8,190 nucleotides of DNA from a virus (IMGVR_UViG_2609459797_000006), one strand, 5' to 3'; counted from the first letter of the stretch, positions 1 through 8,190 are shown. The notes: generated from the sequence alone by a model not told the origin. A program made the numbers and translations.

Positions 1-237
1 CTGTCACCCTTTGACGTGGTGATATGGATGACGGATGGCTGGCCGCTGTATGAATCCCGCCTGAAGGGAAAGCTGCACGTAATCAGCAAGCGATATACGC
101 AGCGAATTGAGCGGCATAACCTGAATCTGAGGCAGCACCTGGCACGGCTGGGACGGAAGTCGCTGTCGTTCTCAAAATCGGTGGAGCTGCATGACAAAGT
201 CATCGGGCATTATCTGAACATAAAACACTATCAATAA
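1..237 (+). CDS. insB: IS1 transposase InsB, C-terminal part (5' end lies outside the window)
   Basis: Open frame runs from nt 1 to the TAA at 235-237; the listed 73-aa ORF (16-237) is only the part after an internal Met. Sequence recognised as InsB. Confidence 0.88.
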
Positions 238-252
238 GTTGGAGTCATTACC
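1..252 (+). mobile_element. IS1 insertion sequence, right-hand ~250 bp (element continues left of the window)
   Basis: Frame 1 from nt 1 reads ...[78 protein letters not shown], which I recognise as the InsB C-terminus. The segment ends with ...CTATCAATAAGTTGGAGTCATTACC (228-252), the reverse complement of the IS1 terminal repeat GGTAATGACTCCAACTTATTGATAG. Recalled from memory, not searched. Confidence 0.88.
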
Positions 253-389: not shown

Positions 390-2159
390 TTACTTTTGAT
401 TTTCTCCACTGTTATGAGATGTATCATTCCACATAGGCATCCAGTCTTCTGAGTCGTCGTGAAGCGTGACGTTTGACCTTATGCCATGTTTTGTTTTGCG
501 CTTCTGGTACTCCTTGCCATATTCAGCCATTGCGCCTGGCATATCCGTACCGAACCTCATCAGCGATACCGGCTTGCTCAGACCATTAGCCCGCATATAA
601 GCCAGATAAGCGTGATACAGATAACGGCGCGGGCTGAATGGCACGATCTCGGCATTGCCAATCAGCATTCCATCACAAACCACCGAAGCCATCAGGTAGC
701 CGCAAAAGTCCACCAGTGAATCCCCTTCACGTTTGATGGCCAGCGCTTCTTCTGATTTCTGCTGCTCATGCAAAAGCTGTTTGGCTTCGTCCTGCCTGGA
801 AAAGCGAGTGAGCAGGTGGCGAATGATTACAGCCAGCTCACCTTCAATCTTCTCGGCCAGCATAGGATCGCGTTCGTTTTCCGGTACCACTTCGGAGAAG
901 TTGAAAATCACCCGCCGTCTGGAAACCCCCCCGCTTCTGTCGCTGAACGACATGGCATTGTTATTGACGGCAAGCACCACCGCTGGAATACGGGTTGAAT
1001 ATGGCGCTTTGTGTTTAGGGTCAATGGCTACCTTATCCCCGCCAGTGATAGCTTTAATCCCTGCGCCGTCGCCAGCGTACCGGGTCATATCCGGCATGAT
1101 AATCAGCGAATAGCCCACTACCAGCGCCCTTTCCCTTGGGTTCTCCAGCGCCGCCATGCTCGCTGATACGGTGTTGGCCTTGCCCGCCAGCATCGTGCAG
1201 ATCTCAGCCATAACACTTTTACCACTTCCGCCCGGCCCCGTTACCTCAAGAAACAGCTGCCAGTCGTACCGGTTCGCCAGCACCATAAACAGCGCAGACA
1301 GTACGCGGTCTGCTTTTCGGTCATTATCCGCCACTGAGCGGCGGAGCCATTTCCAGAAGTTCGGCGCATGGGTTGCCAGAGTCTCTCCTTCTGCTGGTTC
1401 GCTGAATGGCAATTCGCTCGCAACGATAAGCCAGTCCTTTTTATCATGCGGTCGAAATTGGCCTAACCGGGTATCAAAAACCCCGTTGCTGAAACCAATA
1501 AGATTTCGGGCTGTATTACCCATCACTGGCAGACCCAGCTTCATTGTATCGACAGCGGATTTAATCGCGTTCTGCGAATAGGCGACTTCGGCATCAATAA
1601 AAATTTGCGCCATTTCCCGCTGTAGCTCTTTATCCGAAAGCGGAACCCACACCACGCCGTTGTAATGATGAACCGTGTCAGAATCAGCATGGATCGCCAG
1701 ATTGCCATCGTAATGAGCAAGCAGAACCTCCCCGCGCTGGCTGGCTCCCATCTGGTTAAGCGCTGGCGTAGCACTACCCCTCGTAGTCACCATTAGGGGC
1801 TCGTCTTCCAAACGCTTCATTAATGGCGTCCAGTCCTCTTTCTCACCTTTTTCGTTGATAAACTCAGCATTGGTAACGCCAGCCTCACACAGCTTATTTG
1901 CAATCATGCTGATTTGGTTTTGCTCGATAAGTCCGGCCTGACAGACACGAGCAAACCGACGGCCTTTATCAACAATGCGCAGGTGTGGCAATTCCGCCAG
2001 TTGGGTGTGATCCAGAACCACAGGTGGAACATCGTCTCCATGCTCGCCCTTGCCTTTCTGGTAATCCTGAGCGGCTTTCCATGCTCCCGTTCCAGCAAAG
2101 ATGATGGCCTCCTCCATTTTGTCGCGCGGGAGGGTTTTCACATTAGGCGCGTTTTTCAT
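390..2159 (-). CDS. P4 alpha-type replication protein (D5_N-like region plus SF3 helicase; phage/plasmid primase P4-family C-terminal domain), 589 aa
   Basis: Long ORF with Walker A motif VTGPGGSGKS, Walker B-like hydrophobic stretch ending in D (SLIIMPD) and overall resemblance to P4 alpha / poxvirus D5-type helicases. ATG start at 2157-2159 preceded by a GGGGG Shine-Dalgarno-like run. The iteron cluster lies just downstream. Family assignment from motif recognition only. Confidence 0.8.
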   Translation of the reverse strand: MKNAPNVKTLPRDKMEEAIIFAGTGAWKAAQDYQKGKGEHGDDVPPVVLDHTQLAELPHLRIVDKGRRFARVCQAGLIEQNQISMIANKLCEAGVTNAEFINEKGEKEDWTPLMKRLEDEPLMVTTRGSATPALNQMGASQRGEVLLAHYDGNLAIHADSDTVHHYNGVVWVPLSDKELQREMAQIFIDAEVAYSQNAIKSAVDTMKLGLPVMGNTARNLIGFSNGVFDTRLGQFRPHDKKDWLIVASELPFSEPAEGETLATHAPNFWKWLRRSVADNDRKADRVLSALFMVLANRYDWQLFLEVTGPGGSGKSVMAEICTMLAGKANTVSASMAALENPRERALVVGYSLIIMPDMTRYAGDGAGIKAITGGDKVAIDPKHKAPYSTRIPAVVLAVNNNAMSFSDRSGGVSRRRVIFNFSEVVPENERDPMLAEKIEGELAVIIRHLLTRFSRQDEAKQLLHEQQKSEEALAIKREGDSLVDFCGYLMASVVCDGMLIGNAEIVPFSPRRYLYHAYLAYMRANGLSKPVSLMRFGTDMPGAMAEYGKEYQKRKTKHGIRSNVTLHDDSEDWMPMWNDTSHNSGENQK

Positions 2160-2334
2160 CTTTCAGCCCCCAGCTAACGAAAGTGAACTCTTTAACGAAC
2201 CTTTCCAGCGGAAAGATGCACGGAAAATCGTAACCATCACGCACAAACGTTACCCGGTTAAATGCGTTATCTTTCACCGTGACCAGTTCGCCGCGCTTAT
2301 CCTTCCAGCTATCGTTGATTTCAGGATTTCGCAC
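2143..2334 (-). CDS. Small hypothetical protein (63 aa), GTG start, overlaps both neighbours
   Basis: GTG at 2332-2334 preceded by GGAGG at 6-nt spacing; overlaps the upstream ORF by 14 nt and the helicase start by 17 nt (TAA 2143-2145). No family recognised. Could also be an overlap artefact. Confidence 0.4.
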   Translation of the reverse strand: MRNPEINDSWKDKRGELVTVKDNAFNRVTFVRDGYDFPCIFPLERFVKEFTFVSWGLKDEKRA

Positions 2335-2536
2335 TGTAAGCCTCCCGCGCCTTCACCAGCTCGCCGATAGATTTGTGCAGCAGAGACATAATTGCTCCGA
2401 CACGGCACGCTTCCTCACGGTGTTCTTCACCGTCGGGAATGCTGTCAATCCACATGCTCAGCACAGACATTGCGCACTCACTTTCTGAAAGGGCATTTTC
2501 AGCGTGCATCAGGACTTCAAAAGGAACCTGTCTCAC
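2321..2536 (-). CDS. Small hypothetical protein (71 aa), GTG start overlapping the upstream stop (GTGA)
   Basis: GTG at 2534-2536 preceded by GGAGAG; the stop TGA of the upstream 64-aa ORF overlaps this start, indicating translational coupling. Acidic, Cys/His-containing sequence; no family recognised. Confidence 0.5.
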   Translation of the reverse strand: MRQVPFEVLMHAENALSESECAMSVLSMWIDSIPDGEEHREEACRVGAIMSLLHKSIGELVKAREAYSAKS

Positions 2537-2727
2537 TTTGTCTCTCCCATGTGCAGCTCGGCGATTAATGCCCGGTGAATTTCCTGATTAAAATCACACG
2601 CAATAGAAATCAGATTCAGCAGCGTTTCTGAACATTCAGCAGAGGCTTTTTCCAGGATGGTTTCGTAAAGTGATGAAGCCAGCGCTGATTTATATTCGGC
2701 CTGCTCCAGACAGATTGGCTCACGCAT
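2533..2727 (-). CDS. Small hypothetical protein (64 aa)
   Basis: ATG at 2725-2727 preceded by a strong AGGAGG Shine-Dalgarno at ~6 nt; the start overlaps the stop of the upstream ORF (ATGCGTGA). No family recognised. Confidence 0.6.
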
Positions 2728-2911
2728 AGCGAACCTCCTGAACTGGTAGACGGCCAGCGCATACCATCACGCAGCCAGCCGGTGATTGCTCACGGGCTTC
2801 GCGCTCAGTGTTAGCTGTGATGTGAATGACGTTGCGACCGATGGCGCTCAGTGCAAGAAAACGCCAGATGTAGGACTTCCGCCCTTGCGGGTGTGTGATA
2901 TGATCTTTCAT
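2720..2911 (-). CDS. Small hypothetical protein (63 aa; [18 protein letters not shown]...), first gene of the minus-strand operon leading to the helicase/primase
   Basis: Chosen start is the ATG at 2909-2911 with GAGG 6-9 nt upstream. The listed 324-aa ORF (2720-3694) extends this frame upstream across the opposite-strand RHH gene and looks spurious there. An alternative ATG at 2996-2998 lacks a Shine-Dalgarno. Confidence 0.45.
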
Positions 2912-2999
2912 AGCTGCCTCGTTACTTTCGCTAACGGTGGTGGTTAGAGGCCCGGTTAGTGTTCCACCACTGCCGGGCTTTGCTTTACTAAAAGTCATG

Positions 3000-3057
3000 C
3001 AATGTAGTACATTGTCAACTCCACTACAGACTAGACCACAGGAGTTGACAATGTCAA
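3000..3057. promoter_or_regulatory. Divergent promoter/operator region with nested palindromes built on TTGACA/TGTCAA half-sites
   Basis: Seen directly: perfect 15-bp palindrome CAATGTAGTACATTG (3000-3014); perfect 13-bp inverted repeat CATTGTCAACTCC (3010-3022) / GGAGTTGACAATG (3041-3053) with an 18-bp spacer; palindrome TTGACA-A-TGTCAA (3045-3057) spanning the RHH start codon. Lies between divergent genes. Confidence 0.55.
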
Positions 3058-3224
3058 CAAGCGAAAATAAAGAGCGCCATGTTGTGCAGCTCAGACTCGA
3101 TAAAGAACTGTCAGAGCGGCTCGCTTTAGCGATGAAAGAAGACGGTGACGATAATAAGTCGGGATGGATAAAACGCCTTTTGCGCCGTGAACTTGATAAG
3201 CGCGGCATCGAGCCAAAAGGCTGA
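3051..3224 (+). CDS. Small ribbon-helix-helix (CopG/Arc/Mnt-like) DNA-binding protein, 57 aa; candidate repressor of the divergent replication operon
   Basis: ATG at 3051 preceded by AGGAG (3042-3046). Sequence [50 protein letters not shown] has a beta-strand-then-two-helices layout typical of RHH proteins. Fold inferred from sequence pattern only. Confidence 0.55.
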
Positions 3225-3543
3225 ACAGGGTTACTCCCCGTAATGCTGTGGACTGCCCCTCTTAAAAAGGGTCTGTTTTGCGCAACTATTAATGAGTTGT
3301 GCAGAGGCTCCCCTCTTAAAGAGGGTTGGTTATCTTCGCAGCTCTCTACGTTTTTCGTCGGAGCCTCTAAACCACGTTTAACGTTGTTTTGCCATGAACC
3401 CGAATACTGTTCGCCTTTGTCTCGATCTCCGTACGTTAAACGTACGCGGTTAATTTGTGCGTACGGATTTCGTCGGCTCAAGGTTTGACCACCAGCGGCA
3501 AGCCTGGTAATCTGGCGATGTTTCTGTAAAGCGGTATTGCACT

Positions 3544-3571
3544 GGCGGCCCGGCATGGCCGCCTTTGTTTT
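3544..3571 (+). terminator. Rho-independent terminator on the plus strand (GGCGGCC-CGGCAT-GGCCGCC followed by TTTGTTTT)
   Basis: Perfect 7-bp GC stem with 6-nt loop and T-rich tail, seen directly. Sits ~320 nt downstream of the RHH stop and just outside the 3' end of the convergent 230-aa gene. Confidence 0.55.
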
Positions 3572-3576
3572 GCCTG

Positions 3577-4269
3577 TCATACAATAGCCTCCACTTTCAG
3601 CCCGCCAGCGGTATACCCCTGAACCCGAACACCATCGACGCGATGACGCTTTTTCGTCAGAAAGCGGATGTGATCTGCGTAGACGTACTGCCATTTACCA
3701 TCGAGTGCCACACGTTTAAACCACGGATGAGGCTTAGATATGGTCTGGACAACTGGCGCGGAAGCCTTGCAGGGCGTGGGTTCTGCTGTGCATACCCCCT
3801 TATCGTTACCCGTTACTCTATACAGCCAGTAACTTGCCAGCTTCCCGGTCAATTTACGGGTGCGCACGGGGATATAACCCGCCTCACGCATCGCCTTACC
3901 AAAAGTGGCATCGTCCGGGTAATACTGGCGGCGTAGTTCCGTAGATACTGAAACGGCAAAGCTGCGTTTAGTCGGGTATTCCTGCCACTGGCCGACAAAT
4001 TCAAAAGGAAGACCATTAACCCTTCCTTTGGTCTTGTCCTTGCCGCTTATCCCTACATCATGGTCTGCCTCATGCACGGACACGCCGGAACGCAGCCACA
4101 CCAGCCCGTTACCGTTGTGGCGCAACCCCAGATCGGCAAGCGTAAATTCACCGCGATTAATGGGCGACCAGTCACCGGAAATAACCTGTTTACGGTTCGC
4201 TGAAATATCGTGCTGGCTGGCTACAGGGTGAGCGAATCCCTGCCCGTGGAGGGCATTAATCTTTTTCAT
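3577..4269 (-). CDS. Hypothetical protein, 230 aa, encoded immediately downstream of the AlpA-like gene
   Basis: Uninterrupted ORF with ATG start 20 nt downstream of the alpA-like stop. No catalytic motif recognised; family not assignable by eye. Confidence 0.65.
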
Positions 4270-4289: not shown

Positions 4290-4574
4290 TTAAGCAGATT
4301 TACGGCTGTATGGGTTATTGACGTTCTCTACTGCTGGCGGATTACGAACCCACCAGAGCACATCCGAAAGAAGCCAAGCACAGCTATTGCGGCCAAAGTG
4401 ACAGCGCGGAGGGAAGCGCCCCTGCTGCTCCATCTTCCAGCGGCTGGAACGGGAAAGACTGGTGATCTCGCTGCATTCATCTTCACGGATTCGGCGATCA
4501 AACTTAAAGCCGTACTCTTCTAAAAGGGTGCGGCGCTGTTCAGGATTTGGCGGGGTAAAGGTTATATTTTGCAT
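4290..4574 (-). CDS. AlpA/Vis-family phage regulatory protein (MerR-type HTH; transcriptional activator/excision regulator), 94 aa
   Basis: GGAGG Shine-Dalgarno 5-6 nt before the ATG at 4572-4574. Region ...SEITSLSRSSRWKMEQQGRFPPRCHFGRNSCAWLLSDVLWWVRN matches the AlpA pattern (LSRST-Y...G-FP....G...W...-V--W). The family includes E. coli CP4-57 AlpA and P4 Vis, recalled from memory. Confidence 0.75.
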   Translation of the reverse strand: MQNITFTPPNPEQRRTLLEEYGFKFDRRIREDECSEITSLSRSSRWKMEQQGRFPPRCHFGRNSCAWLLSDVLWWVRNPPAVENVNNPYSRKSA

Positions 4575-4699: not shown

Positions 4700-4830
4700 A
4701 CGCTCCCCTGTTTAAAACAGTTTCCACAGTAATTTCAACGGCTGTCTCGAGAGAAAAAATCATGAATTTCAATAACTCGCCGAAGATCACCGTTCTTTAA
4801 CGATTTGATTCACCTTGGATTGTTCATAAC

Positions 4831-5030
4831 AAAGATGAACAATGATGAACGCTGATGAACAGTGATGAATAACCATGAACAAAGATGGAAAAAGTTAGCA
4901 AGTAATGACCTAGTAGGGACCGTGGATGGAGCTAGGTATTGTTAGGTGCTGTCGGGTGCCGTTACGTGTCATAACGTGTCATTACGTGTCGTTGAATGCT
5001 GTTGAATGCTGTTGAATGCTGTTGAATGTA
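4831..5030. repeat. Array of twenty phased 10-bp tandem repeat units in successive sub-families (ATGAAC-type x6, GGTGCT-type x3, TTACGTGTC x3, GTTGAATGCT x4), followed by very AT-rich DNA (5031-5164); candidate replication origin or protein-binding array
   Basis: Seen directly: 4831-4890 aaagatgaac/aatgatgaac/gctgatgaac/agtgatgaat/aaccatgaac/aaagatggaa; 4931-4960 gctaggtatt/gttaggtgct/gtcgggtgcc; 4961-4990 gttacgtgtc/ataacgtgtc/attacgtgtc; 4991-5030 gttgaatgct x3 then gttgaatgta. Strict 10-bp register throughout. No ORF present. Confidence 0.8.
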
Positions 5031-5164: not shown

Positions 5165-5815
5165 TCATTCCGTATAATAAATCGAATTTAATGCCTTTCG
5201 AATTTTCTCATATATTGCTGATTTAGATAATCCAGTTTTAGATATACCTTCCTCATCAGCTAATTTATATAGTTCGTTTAAAATAGCCGAGATGCTTGGT
5301 TTTTTAGAGGTGCCAAACGAATGGCCTATCTTATGTGCTATAAGCTTGACCAGCATCCCCATTAATTTATCATTATATTCCTTTTCATCTTCTTTACGAT
5401 GCAAGCCGCGTTTGCTGCTTTTCAATGCAATTCCGACCTGTAAAAGCTCATCCCCTCCCATAGCATAAAGATGCTCTTTTCCTTTGTTTTGATTAGCAAT
5501 TATAGCCACCGCCGCAAGGCATCTGTCCTTTATGGGTTGTGGTGTAATATCTTCATCAATAAGAGGATATGCCAGAGCAAACATATAGTCTGCGGGATAG
5601 GCTGTTGAGTTTCCACCTCGAAATAATTTAGATGCTGATAACCATCTACTCAGTTGTCGATAGTATATATTGTAAGCTTCAACTTTCGCTTCAGGGATAT
5701 CAGCAGTTTTAACTGTCGGATCTACCCCACACATAAGTAGTGCAAGTTGTTTAATATTTAGCTCCGGGGCTTTGGCTTCTCGCTCGAAAATACCCAATTT
5801 TAGAAAACTAGTCAT
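5165..5815 (-). CDS. Hypothetical protein, 216 aa, AT-rich, translationally coupled to the integrase (TAATG overlap); possible C-terminal HTH
   Basis: ATG at 5813-5815 overlaps the integrase stop TAA (5815-5817). Base composition visibly more AT-rich than flanking genes. C-terminal segment ISKTGLSKSAIYEKIRKA resembles a helix-turn-helix. No known family recognised. Confidence 0.7.
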   Translation of the reverse strand: MTSFLKLGIFEREAKAPELNIKQLALLMCGVDPTVKTADIPEAKVEAYNIYYRQLSRWLSASKLFRGGNSTAYPADYMFALAYPLIDEDITPQPIKDRCLAAVAIIANQNKGKEHLYAMGGDELLQVGIALKSSKRGLHRKEDEKEYNDKLMGMLVKLIAHKIGHSFGTSKKPSISAILNELYKLADEEGISKTGLSKSAIYEKIRKALNSIYYTE

Positions 5816-7035
5816 TATTCAGCCTTATTCAACAAAACAATGTTAGTGAATCCACCTGATAAAATATCAAGTCTGTCATACCATTTATTCAACGCATCCA
5901 GTTTCTCAGGCAAGTACAGACTACGGTTATAAATCGCCATGACTCCCGGCATTGAGTGCCCCAGCAACTGTTCGACAACGTGTGGTGCTATACCCATATT
6001 ATTCATATGCGTTGCTAAAGTTCGTCTTAGATCGTGCAGTGTCCATGGTTCAGAATGCCCTAGCTTTTTATAAACGCCGCGGCCCCACTGACTTACCGCT
6101 TCACTGCCTTTAACCGACCCAAGCAAAAGGCCGGATCGTTTCGTTTCATCATGCAGTATTTCAATGAATTTGCGCATGGCATCCGGCACAGGTCTTACAA
6201 TCTTCTCGCCACCCTTGCTGTGCTCTTTGGGAACTGTCCAGACCCAGGCATCCATATCCCATTCACTCCACTCTGATAGCCTGGCCTCCTGCGTTCGGCA
6301 CCCAAACACTATTAAGATTGTCAGTAGCCTGGTGTAGTAAGGCATGAAGCAAGTGCCAGAGGAAATGGCAGCCCATAAATCGCCAGCCTCTTTATCGTTT
6401 AATACCCGGTCTTTTTTTGCCTGTTTTTTACCGACATCTGGAATTGTTAAATCTTCAAGCGCGGTACTCACAGCATAGCGACGAACCCGGCAGAATTTCA
6501 GGGCTTGTTTGCACATCTGGAACACATAACCTGCGGCGACTGGAGTTTTCTTTTTCATCCTGTCAAAGCAGTCAAGCCAGTATCGTGTTTCACAGTCAGC
6601 GAGCGCCATTTTCCCTATATAAGGATAAATGTGTTTTCGCAGCTCCGCTTTGTGCCGTTCAACATTCGCGCGGTTCTCTTCTGCATATTCGCGTATCCAG
6701 TATTCTATAGCTTCCTTAACAGTGACCGGTTTAAGGGTTTCCTGAGTAGTCAACGCCAACTGGTGCTTTGGATCTTTACCTGAGGCCAGCCACTGGCGGC
6801 ATTTATCACGCGATGAACGGGCTTCTTTGAGGCTCATATCCGGGTATCGTCCCAGAGTCAGACGATGCAGCTTCTGCCCGTCAAGTCGGTAAGTAAACAC
6901 CCAGCTAATACCACCAGCTTTAGTTACCTTGGCGCTCAGCCCGGCACCATCAGCATAGAACTCAATCTTACTGGCCGGGATACCATGTAATCCCTTTAAC
7001 TTCCTGTCGCTCAGTTTGTTAAGTTCCCCAGCCAT
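5815..7035 (-). CDS. int: P4-type tyrosine integrase (site-specific recombinase), 406 aa
   Basis: N-terminal segment (SDRKLKGL...KIEFYADGAGLSAKVTKAGGISWVFTYRLDGQKLHRLTLGRYPDMSLKEAR) matches the P4-integrase arm-binding domain pattern. C-terminal region carries HDLRRT (His-x-x-Arg) and GHSMPGVMAIYNRS (catalytic Tyr). ATG at 7033-7035. Confidence 0.9.
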   Translation of the reverse strand: MAGELNKLSDRKLKGLHGIPASKIEFYADGAGLSAKVTKAGGISWVFTYRLDGQKLHRLTLGRYPDMSLKEARSSRDKCRQWLASGKDPKHQLALTTQETLKPVTVKEAIEYWIREYAEENRANVERHKAELRKHIYPYIGKMALADCETRYWLDCFDRMKKKTPVAAGYVFQMCKQALKFCRVRRYAVSTALEDLTIPDVGKKQAKKDRVLNDKEAGDLWAAISSGTCFMPYYTRLLTILIVFGCRTQEARLSEWSEWDMDAWVWTVPKEHSKGGEKIVRPVPDAMRKFIEILHDETKRSGLLLGSVKGSEAVSQWGRGVYKKLGHSEPWTLHDLRRTLATHMNNMGIAPHVVEQLLGHSMPGVMAIYNRSLYLPEKLDALNKWYDRLDILSGGFTNIVLLNKAE

Positions 7036-7281: not shown

Positions 7282-7305
7282 ATAGGTGTCACAAAGGGAG
7301 TGACC

Positions 7306-8190
7306 ATGAGAACAGGATGTGAACCGACCCGGTTTGGTAATGAAGCTAAGACCATTATTCACGGTGATGCCCTTGCCGAACTTAAAAAGCTACCTACTGA
7401 AAGCGTCGATCTGATCTTTGCCGACCCACCGTATAACATCGGTAAAAATTTTGATGGTCTGATCGAAGCCTGGAAAGAAGATCTGTTTATCGACTGGCTG
7501 TTTGAAGTGATTGCAGAGTGCCACCGCGTTCTGAAAAAGCAGGGCAGCATGTACATTATGAACAGTACGGAAAACATGCCCTTTATCGATCTCCAGTGCC
7601 GCAAGCTTTTTACCATCAAAAGTCGCATCGTCTGGTCATATGACAGTTCTGGAGTACAGGCGAAAAAACACTACGGCTCCATGTACGAACCCATCCTGAT
7701 GATGGTGAAAGACGCAAAGAACTACACATTCAACGGTGATGCTATTCTGGTAGAAGCCAAAACCGGATCGCAGCGCGCGTTGATCGATTATCGCAAAAAT
7801 CCTCCACAGCCATACAATCATCAAAAAGTACCGGGTAACGTCTGGGATTTTCCGCGCGTGCGTTATTTAATGGATGAATATGAGAACCACCCGACGCAAA
7901 AACCGGAAGCCTTACTGAAACGCATTATTCTCGCCTCTTCCAACCCAGGCGATATCGTTCTCGACCCGTTTGCCGGTAGCTTTACTACCGGTGCCGTAGC
8001 CATCGCCAGCGGACGAAAATTCATTGGTATTGAGATCAACAGCGAGTACATCAAAATGGGGCTTCGACGGCTGGATGTCGCGTCGCATTACTCCGCGGAA
8101 GAACTGGCGAAAGTGAAAAAAAGAAAGACGGGCAACCGGTCAAAACGATGCCGGGTTAGCGAAGTTGACCCCGATCTCATTGCAAAGTAA
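7306..8190 (+). CDS. yhdJ: DNA adenine (N6) methyltransferase YhdJ, 294 aa
   Basis: Sequence MRTGCEPTRFGNEAKTIIHGDALAELKK...DLIFADPPYNIGKNF...LDPFAGSFTTG recognised as E. coli YhdJ, with DPPY catalytic motif and SAM-binding motif in beta-class order. ATG at 7306 with AGGGAG Shine-Dalgarno preferred over the GTG at 7300 listed in the ORF track; TAA at 8188-8190. Confidence 0.85.
   Translation: MRTGCEPTRFGNEAKTIIHGDALAELKKLPTESVDLIFADPPYNIGKNFDGLIEAWKEDLFIDWLFEVIAECHRVLKKQGSMYIMNSTENMPFIDLQCRKLFTIKSRIVWSYDSSGVQAKKHYGSMYEPILMMVKDAKNYTFNGDAILVEAKTGSQRALIDYRKNPPQPYNHQKVPGNVWDFPRVRYLMDEYENHPTQKPEALLKRIILASSNPGDIVLDPFAGSFTTGAVAIASGRKFIGIEINSEYIKMGLRRLDVASHYSAEELAKVKKRKTGNRSKRCRVSEVDPDLIAK

Follow-up and report, generated by a model that had tools for sequence, protein, structure and literature searches.

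A predicted Pri-Rep initiator-helicase with a satellite-borne N-terminal module in place of a recognisable primase domain

We analysed a stretch of viral DNA of 8,190 nucleotides (IMGVR_UViG_2609459797_000006; the whole stretch is called the window in the following), which holds part of a phage satellite of Escherichia coli and encodes on its minus strand a 589-aa replication protein (Rep; positions 390-2159) and, upstream of it, a 230-aa protein (3577-4269). An earlier reading of the sequence alone had placed both open reading frames (ORFs) correctly, had seen a helicase with a preceding D5_N-like region in Rep, and had raised the question of how the element primes its replication, as the N-terminal primase domain of the related alpha protein of satellite P4 appeared to be missing. 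It seems rather probable to us that Rep is the Pri-Rep protein of a capsid-forming phage-inducible chromosomal island (cf-PICI), i.e. an iteron-binding helicase devoid of primase for which the host primase DnaG would make the primers, with an N-terminal module that would serve as an adaptor, and that the 230-aa protein may have a role in regulation or in the interaction with the helper. The features that bear on Rep and its origin are the following:

390-2159, minus strand: predicted Pri-Rep or P4-alpha-like initiator-helicase of 589 aa, no primase domain detected
1800-2159, minus strand: N-terminal alpha/beta domain of Rep, residues 1-120, which takes the place of the zinc ribbon and Toprim of P4 alpha
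1341-1730, minus strand: D5_N, residues 144-273 (Pfam PF08706, E=1.1e-9)
915-1241, minus strand: superfamily 3 (SF3) helicase core DUF5906, residues 307-415 (Pfam PF19263, E=2.5e-10), with Walker A motif GPGGSGKS at residue 308
435-725, minus strand: C-terminal winged helix, residues 479-575 (Pfam Pox_D5, 478-573, E=1.4e-12)
280-380: origin remnant directly downstream of the Rep stop codon, with four exact and two one-mismatch copies of TGTTCACC in both orientations
1-252, plus strand: IS1 fragment, in which an ORF (16-237) was read by eye as the C-terminus of the IS1 transposase

The Pfam matches confirmed the helicase and D5_N-like parts of Rep. In addition, the winged helix matched the DNA-binding domain of P4 alpha (PDB 1KA8, E=2.2e-25, phmmer), the SF3 core matched the SaPI5 PriRep structure 7OLA (E=1.7e-9, PDB sequence search), and model TIGR01613 gave 98.8 bits, just under its cutoff of 108.7. 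P4 alpha was scanned against Pfam in the same way and was indeed found to be a protein of 777 aa with a primase part, as the sequence-only reading had stated; its domains were: Zn_Ribbon_Prim (30-66), Toprim_3 (210-299), D5_N (336-467), DUF5906 (500-608) and Pox_D5 (670-768). The order of D5_N, SF3 helicase and C-terminal winged helix is collinear in the two proteins, and BLASTP aligned residues 134-581 of Rep to residues 327-775 of P4 alpha with 51% identity and one gap. The identity was 36% for the D5_N part (P4 alpha residues 327-483), 65% for the helicase (Rep residues 291-470) and 50% for the winged helix, and all helicase motifs of P4 alpha are retained.

The two proteins part company at the N-terminus. 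The zinc ribbon and Toprim of P4 alpha lie within residues 1-326, to which BLASTP aligned nothing of Rep, and Rep has a dissimilar domain of 120 residues instead. The suspected lack of an N-terminal CxxC zinc cluster extends to the whole protein, in which no CxxC occurs, and the first 140 residues contain just two cysteines (C73 and C91). Residues 1-140 had no match in Pfam at E≤1, in a search in which the zinc ribbon of P4 alpha (PF08273) scored 1.9e-18, and no Toprim, Toprim_2 or Toprim_3 match was found anywhere in Rep. When a profile of the N-terminal domain was aligned with hhalign to the zinc-ribbon/Toprim region of five alpha-like primases the probability was 0.2%, and we then gave up reading the domain as a degenerate Toprim that could still be recognised. 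Judged by these comparisons, neither the zinc ribbon nor the Toprim that define a P4-alpha-type primase-helicase is present in Rep, and the earlier suggestion that the primase domain is missing stood up to the Pfam, BLASTP and hhalign results alike.

The domain that stands in this place appears to be a mobile module. Its AlphaFold2 (AF2) model (predicted local distance difference test (pLDDT) 82, predicted TM-score (pTM) 0.74) is a small beta-alpha-beta sandwich, for which Foldseek returned no E-value below 0.066 in the PDB, and a profile search of PDB sequences with the domain came back empty. The non-significant Foldseek matches included phosphoribosyltransferases and the RNA-polymerase domain of Staphylococcus aureus DnaG (probability 0.69, TM 0.37). 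The residues that are conserved in the domain are D13, E17, D42, E56, E108, R67 and R71, of which the acidic ones do not fit the Toprim pattern (Glu after strand 1, DxD after strand 3), the equivalent of the DxD, D64, being variable. A phmmer search over 1.8 billion cluster representatives recovered only 57 proteins with the domain, many of them short fragments, and in the longer carriers the match began at the N-terminus in all cases. The full-length carriers combine the domain with four ATPase bodies: P4-alpha-type SF3, DUF927, VapE-like and AAA_25. One genomic context was read for each of the latter three: two were satellites of the type int-alpA-...-helicase, one of them at the fis locus, and the third lay on a short contig whose start is close upstream of alpA; in the stretches read around these three carriers no Zn_Ribbon_Prim, Toprim or archaeo-eukaryotic primase (AEP) gene was called. 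In sister islands the same position is filled by a zinc ribbon/Toprim, either fused or as an adjacent gene. The domain of Rep is 50-58% identical to copies on unrelated bodies versus 41% to the copy in the Pri-Rep of EcCICFT073, the prototype Gram-negative PICI, which points to module exchange, and the distribution as a whole suggests a shuffled module that is restricted to satellites. One 310-aa protein (P0294) carries a stretch resembling the domain (13-101) and a Phage_capsid domain (78-299), and may be a chimera of gene calling or assembly.

The element itself was identified via an intact relative in Escherichia coli OW1E2 (L001), which is 97.6% identical and located between fis and yhdJ. 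Past the rep gene this relative encodes: a major capsid protein, a prohead protease, a portal, head-closure and connector proteins, an HNH protein, TerS and TerL. A cf-PICI was taken to be an element with int, alpA and pri-rep together with its own capsid, protease, portal, head-tail connector, HNH, terS and terL genes, and without tail or lysis genes. Given the gene set of the intact relative, the element in the window is best classified as a cf-PICI inserted between fis and yhdJ, which sets it apart from P4 and replaces the P4-like framing of the sequence-only reading. The window has the int-to-rep half of such an element alone, as IS1 interrupts it at base 252; the complete set is seen in the relative. 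The homology to intact elements begins at base 253, and the insertion lies inside the iteron origin, with the loss of three of the eight exact iterons and of every capsid and packaging gene that intact relatives carry beyond this point. The IS1 junction was found in none of the 5426 complete E. coli genomes of the collection. The same cf-PICI has also been filed as a phage (LR881103.1, L003; 'Escherichia phage vB_KppS-Ant', source 'induced prophage', 16.5 kb), with a Rep that is 97.6% identical to the one studied here.

The damage to this copy, with its origin cut and its packaging module removed by IS1, could suggest that Rep is a decayed, non-functional remnant of P4 alpha. We regard this as the least credible of the explanations considered, since the ORF is intact with helicase motifs that are conserved with P4 alpha, homologs number in the thousands, the N-terminal domain is conserved from the first residue, and a homolog has been shown to function experimentally (PMC6092414). 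Rep had 5655 homologs in the database; the best 120, which stem from Klebsiella, Citrobacter, Enterobacter, Dickeya, Pectobacterium and further genera, are all 582-606 aa long and contain PF19263, PF08706 and PF03288 only, and the length of 589 aa therefore appears to be native and not the result of truncation; the reading as a truncated pseudogene was rejected on this conservation. The N-terminal motif MKxAPN is 89-100% conserved across the Rep family, which favours the ATG at 2159 over the RefSeq start six codons downstream.

The origin provides a second link to P4. The octamer TGTTCACC is identical to the one annotated as 'ori type 1 repeat' in the ori and crr of P4, and its four exact copies in the window compare with 0.21 expected (at least four were obtained in 0 of 200 shuffles). 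In the intact relative there are eight exact copies at 11901-12128, a stretch of 230 bp, arranged in two sets around an A+T-rich segment, and these are all the exact copies that its element contains. The origins of Gram-negative PICIs have been described as having a set of iterons on either side of an A+T-rich stretch (PMC6092414); this arrangement is complete in the relative and has lost its distal set in the window, where the rep gene follows int and alpA in the same orientation. As with the crr of P4, the iteron cluster lies directly downstream of the replication gene, whereas P4 has separate ori and crr regions and the cf-PICI has one iteron region. As P4-type iterons directly follow its gene, Rep is predicted to be the origin-binding initiator, and its winged helix together with these iterons would make an additional origin-recognition factor superfluous. 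The iteron sequence that P4 and the cf-PICI have in common also implies possible cross-talk in replication with P4-like satellites in the same cell.

Rep and the Pri-Rep of EcCICFT073 (WP_000761835.1, 584 aa) are homologous over their full length, N-terminal domain included (BLASTP, 41% identity over residues 1-574, E=5e-155), and have the same three Pfam domains; as in Rep, a primase domain was undetectable in the EcCICFT073 protein, although the latter is termed a primase-replicase fusion in the literature. The gene order is likewise the same: int, alpA, an Icd-like gene, small ORFs, a DUF4222 gene, rep and an iteron-bearing ori. The two elements differ in their iterons (TGTCTACC-type in EcCICFT073), in the helicase and winged-helix body, which in Rep is nearer to P4 alpha, and in the surrounding genes, EcCICFT073 having no annotated gene comparable to that of the 230-aa protein and a gene for a single-stranded DNA-binding protein after its ori. 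Fillol-Salom et al. reported that rep and ori of EcCICFT073 maintained a temperature-sensitive plasmid in E. coli DH5alpha in the absence of a helper phage, in a rep- and ori-dependent manner (PMC6092414). Another known system is that of the Rep and PriRep5 proteins of the S. aureus pathogenicity islands (SaPIs), self-loading initiator-helicases whose C-terminal winged helix reads iterons just downstream of the gene (PMC9371898). Rep is predicted to be like them in these respects and has the SF3 helicase core in common with them, which is the one region that matched 7OLA in the PDB sequence search; unlike the element studied here, in which no primase was detected, the SaPIs have a primase of their own, the product of a separate gene that precedes rep or, in SaPI5, a part of the Rep protein itself (PMC9371898). 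On the tested features, i.e. homology, position after int and alpA and an iteron-flanked ori, Rep appears to be of the EcCICFT073 type, and would be a further member of a known and experimentally studied Pri-Rep class.

In the mechanism that we favour, the winged helix would bind the TGTTCACC iterons directly downstream of its own gene, Rep would melt and unwind the origin as a self-loading helicase, the host primase DnaG would make RNA primers for the host Pol III to extend, and the N-terminal domain may couple the helicase to a component of the host replisome, possibly DnaG. Host primers are proposed because no primase was found in Rep. The helper-free replication of the EcCICFT073 rep-ori implies that priming for this class needs no helper, and the lack of a comparable annotated gene in EcCICFT073 that it needs no 230-aa-type protein, so that the primers must be made either by the host or by Rep itself, through an activity that has escaped recognition. 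Of these two, host DnaG is favoured, since no other primase is known in E. coli K-12 and no primase catalytic core as small as 120 residues is known. The sequence-only reading had proposed that the element may rely on the helper or host primase: the host part is the proposal that the evidence supports best, and the helper part does not agree with the helper-free replication of EcCICFT073. Several points weigh against priming by the host. The evidence from EcCICFT073 concerns a 41%-identical homolog and not Rep itself, and with its rep-ori the number of colonies was lower at 44 C than at 30 C (PMC6092414); the conserved acidic and basic residues of the N-terminal domain are compatible with a catalytic role; and the RNA-polymerase domain of S. 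aureus DnaG is among the best non-significant fold matches of that domain.

The last two of these points would fit a Rep that primes for itself, with the N-terminal domain, alone or with D5_N, as a very small primase, or with a cryptic site elsewhere in the protein. The domain is located exactly where related helicases hold their primase domains, shows a weak Rossmann/Toprim-like resemblance to DnaG RNA-polymerase domains next to its conserved charged residues, and self-priming would be equally compatible with the helper-free replication of EcCICFT073 (PMC6092414). We nevertheless hold it to be improbable: in the Pfam and PDB searches the domain was not significantly similar to Toprim or another primase in sequence, profile or fold, the conserved acidic residues are off the Toprim pattern with D64 variable, there is no zinc-binding motif, and the domain is smaller than the known primase cores. 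A new minimal primase is accordingly the less likely reading of the domain. Somewhat less improbable, and still unlikely, is priming in trans, by the primase of a helper phage or by a co-resident P4-like alpha that reads TGTTCACC, with efficient replication during helper infection only. Helper induction is indeed followed by satellite replication, the iterons match those of P4 exactly, P4-like elements and cf-PICIs occur together in 379 genomes (PMC10085698), and the lower colony number at 44 C could be read in this sense (PMC6092414). Yet the EcCICFT073 rep-ori replicated in DH5alpha without a helper (PMC6092414), and an N-terminal-domain architecture that is kept across many genera and four helicase bodies speaks against a dependence on the primase of one particular helper. 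With priming by host DnaG as the preferred reading, we tentatively suggest that the N-terminal domain is a portable module of enterobacterial satellites, which would replace the primase on four helicase scaffolds and might recruit DnaG or another part of the replisome. If true, this would be a new kind of primase-recruitment adaptor, which brings the host primase to a helicase other than DnaB.

The 230-aa protein had been put forward as a candidate for a separate priming or origin-recognition function. The ORF appears to be a real gene, of a family that seems restricted to satellites: it has 176 homologs across Enterobacterales, some down to ~45% identity over nearly the full length, and within the phage genome collection it occurred only in the mis-filed cf-PICI record and in no true phage. 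The protein had no match in Pfam, NCBIfam, PHROGs, PADLOC or PDB sequences, a profile search of PDB sequences with the family alignment gave nothing, and its AF2 model (pLDDT 74.5; domains 17-72, a winged-helix-like 82-152 and a beta-rich 170-230) had no Foldseek match below E=0.1 in the PDB or BFVD. The searches thus returned neither a well-defined family for this protein nor a primase domain in Rep, the two outcomes that the sequence-only reading had named as arguing against it. The family is modular: the N-terminal module (~residues 1-80) is missing in forms of ~170 aa, forms of ~300 aa have an insert, and the last ~55 residues are nearly invariant and beta-rich.

In favour of a part in priming or origin recognition it may be said that the gene lies upstream of the replication operon on the same strand, that the middle domain of the model is winged-helix-like, and that a protein outside any known family keeps all functions possible. 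Such a part is nonetheless very improbable. The searches found neither a primase-like sequence nor such a fold, and the homologs of 169 aa occur in PICIs whose Pri-Rep is an 810-aa protein with complete Zn_Ribbon_Prim and Toprim_3, while a 309-aa homolog adjoins zinc-ribbon/Toprim and DUF927 genes; as the homologs co-occur with complete Toprim primases, the 230-aa protein does not appear to compensate for a missing one. No counterpart is annotated in EcCICFT073 or was called in the other satellites with the N-terminal domain that were read, between the gene and the replication operon lie ~350 non-coding nt and the divergent ORF, and origin recognition is already accounted for by the winged helix of Rep (1KA8) and the TGTTCACC iterons. 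The gene is part of an early operon led by alpA. Its slot, directly after alpA, is taken by a Bro-N or an AntA gene in two other satellites that were read (AntA in L013), and in another island a faint pRha match was seen two genes after alpA. AntA was suggested for the 230-aa family only by the source name of one homolog (P0086), and an AntA/AntB antirepressor was rejected, AntA (PF08346) being matched by 0 of 57 family members at E≤0.05. With low confidence, we consider a role in regulation or in the interaction with the helper likelier than one as a replication enzyme.

Within the window all genes of the element are found on the minus strand, with a 57-aa ORF divergent to them. The remaining features, from the flanking host gene to the replication operon, are:

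7300-8190, plus strand: host gene yhdJ (NF008572, E=2e-177), which flanks the integrase gene
5815-7035, minus strand: tyrosine integrase (Pfam Arm-DNA-bind_3 and Phage_integrase), adjoining yhdJ
5165-5815, minus strand: 216-aa gene (phrog_30524), whose start is the last base of the integrase stop codon
4991-5028: tandem array GTTGAATGCT x3.8
4964-4990: tandem array ACGTGTCATA x2.7
4828-4887: tandem array AACAATGATG x6, which contains GATGAACA, one mismatch from the iteron TGTTCACC
4290-4574, minus strand: AlpA-family regulator (Pfam PF05930, E=5e-10; phrog_2790, E=1.5e-39)
3577-4269, minus strand: 230-aa ORF, second gene after alpA
3051-3224, plus strand: divergent 57-aa ORF, candidate repressor, annotated in the intact relative
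3009-3022 and 3041-3054: perfect 14-nt inverted repeat, ACATTGTCAACTCC and GGAGTTGACAATGT, between the 57-aa ORF and the operon that starts with the Icd-like ORF
2720-2911, minus strand: Icd-like small ORF (RefSeq name in the intact relative), which opens the replication operon
2533-2727 and 2321-2536, minus strand: two small ORFs (64 aa and 71 aa, both with PHROG matches) downstream of the Icd-like ORF
2143-2334, minus strand: DUF4222 gene (Pfam PF13973, E=9e-20), whose 3' end overlaps the start of the Pri-Rep gene by 17 nt

The replication operon thus consists of the Icd-like ORF, the two small ORFs, the DUF4222 gene and the 589-aa ORF, and a DUF4222 gene directly upstream of the helicase gene was also found in EcCICFT073 and in L013. 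The inverted repeat at 3009-3054 is likely to be an operator. At the position that corresponds to the 57-aa ORF, EcCICFT073 has a small minus-strand gene of the YlcI/YnfO family. The non-coding DNA between the 57-aa and 230-aa ORFs (3229-3576) had no Rfam match, as was the case for the entire window (E≤0.1); this stretch contains several hairpins, among them a strong plus-strand terminator-like one at 3544-3563. A 324-aa ORF (2720-3694, minus strand) was rejected as a gene for overlapping both the RefSeq Icd-like ORF and the 57-aa ORF on the opposite strand; its equivalent is annotated solely in the phage-style record LR881103.

Some further observations were made on the element and its relatives. 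The three tandem arrays upstream of alpA (4828-5028) lie in an A+T-rich region and are phased by 10 bp; they could be binding sites of AlpA, Rep or the integrase. In its overlap with the integrase gene the 216-aa gene resembles 'iolg', the integrase-overlapping gene of the Vibrio PICMI satellites that is essential for excision (PMC10803314), and in another record (L007) a 216-aa gene overlaps int by 4 nt. PADLOC matched none of the 230-aa, 216-aa and 589-aa proteins to a defence system. In the intact relative, two plus-strand genes just beyond the origin (10006-11563) correspond to the candidate defence pair PDC-M18A/B of PADLOC (E=2e-71 and 8e-23), an accessory defence cargo of the cf-PICI that is lost from the copy in the window. 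In LR881103.1 a 765-aa 'tape measure' gene follows terL, and a VapE-type satellite at the fis locus (L011) likewise ends in a 759-aa PhageMin_Tail gene.

In the searchable literature we came across neither a report of PICI Pri-Rep proteins being devoid of a primase domain or working with DnaG nor a description of the N-terminal domain as a mobile module of four helicase families. The 'primase' or Pri-Rep genes are core markers of satellites and are described as primer-synthesising enzymes (PMC10803314, PMC10085698), while in practice they are detected via their helicase domains. The proteins of the window and of EcCICFT073 represent a common enterobacterial class of Pri-Rep without a recognisable primase, in spite of the annotation as 'DNA primase', and satellites with such a Pri-Rep probably depend on the primase of their host. 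The N-terminal module would then be a candidate, amenable to experiment, for what connects a foreign SF3 helicase to the replisome of E. coli.

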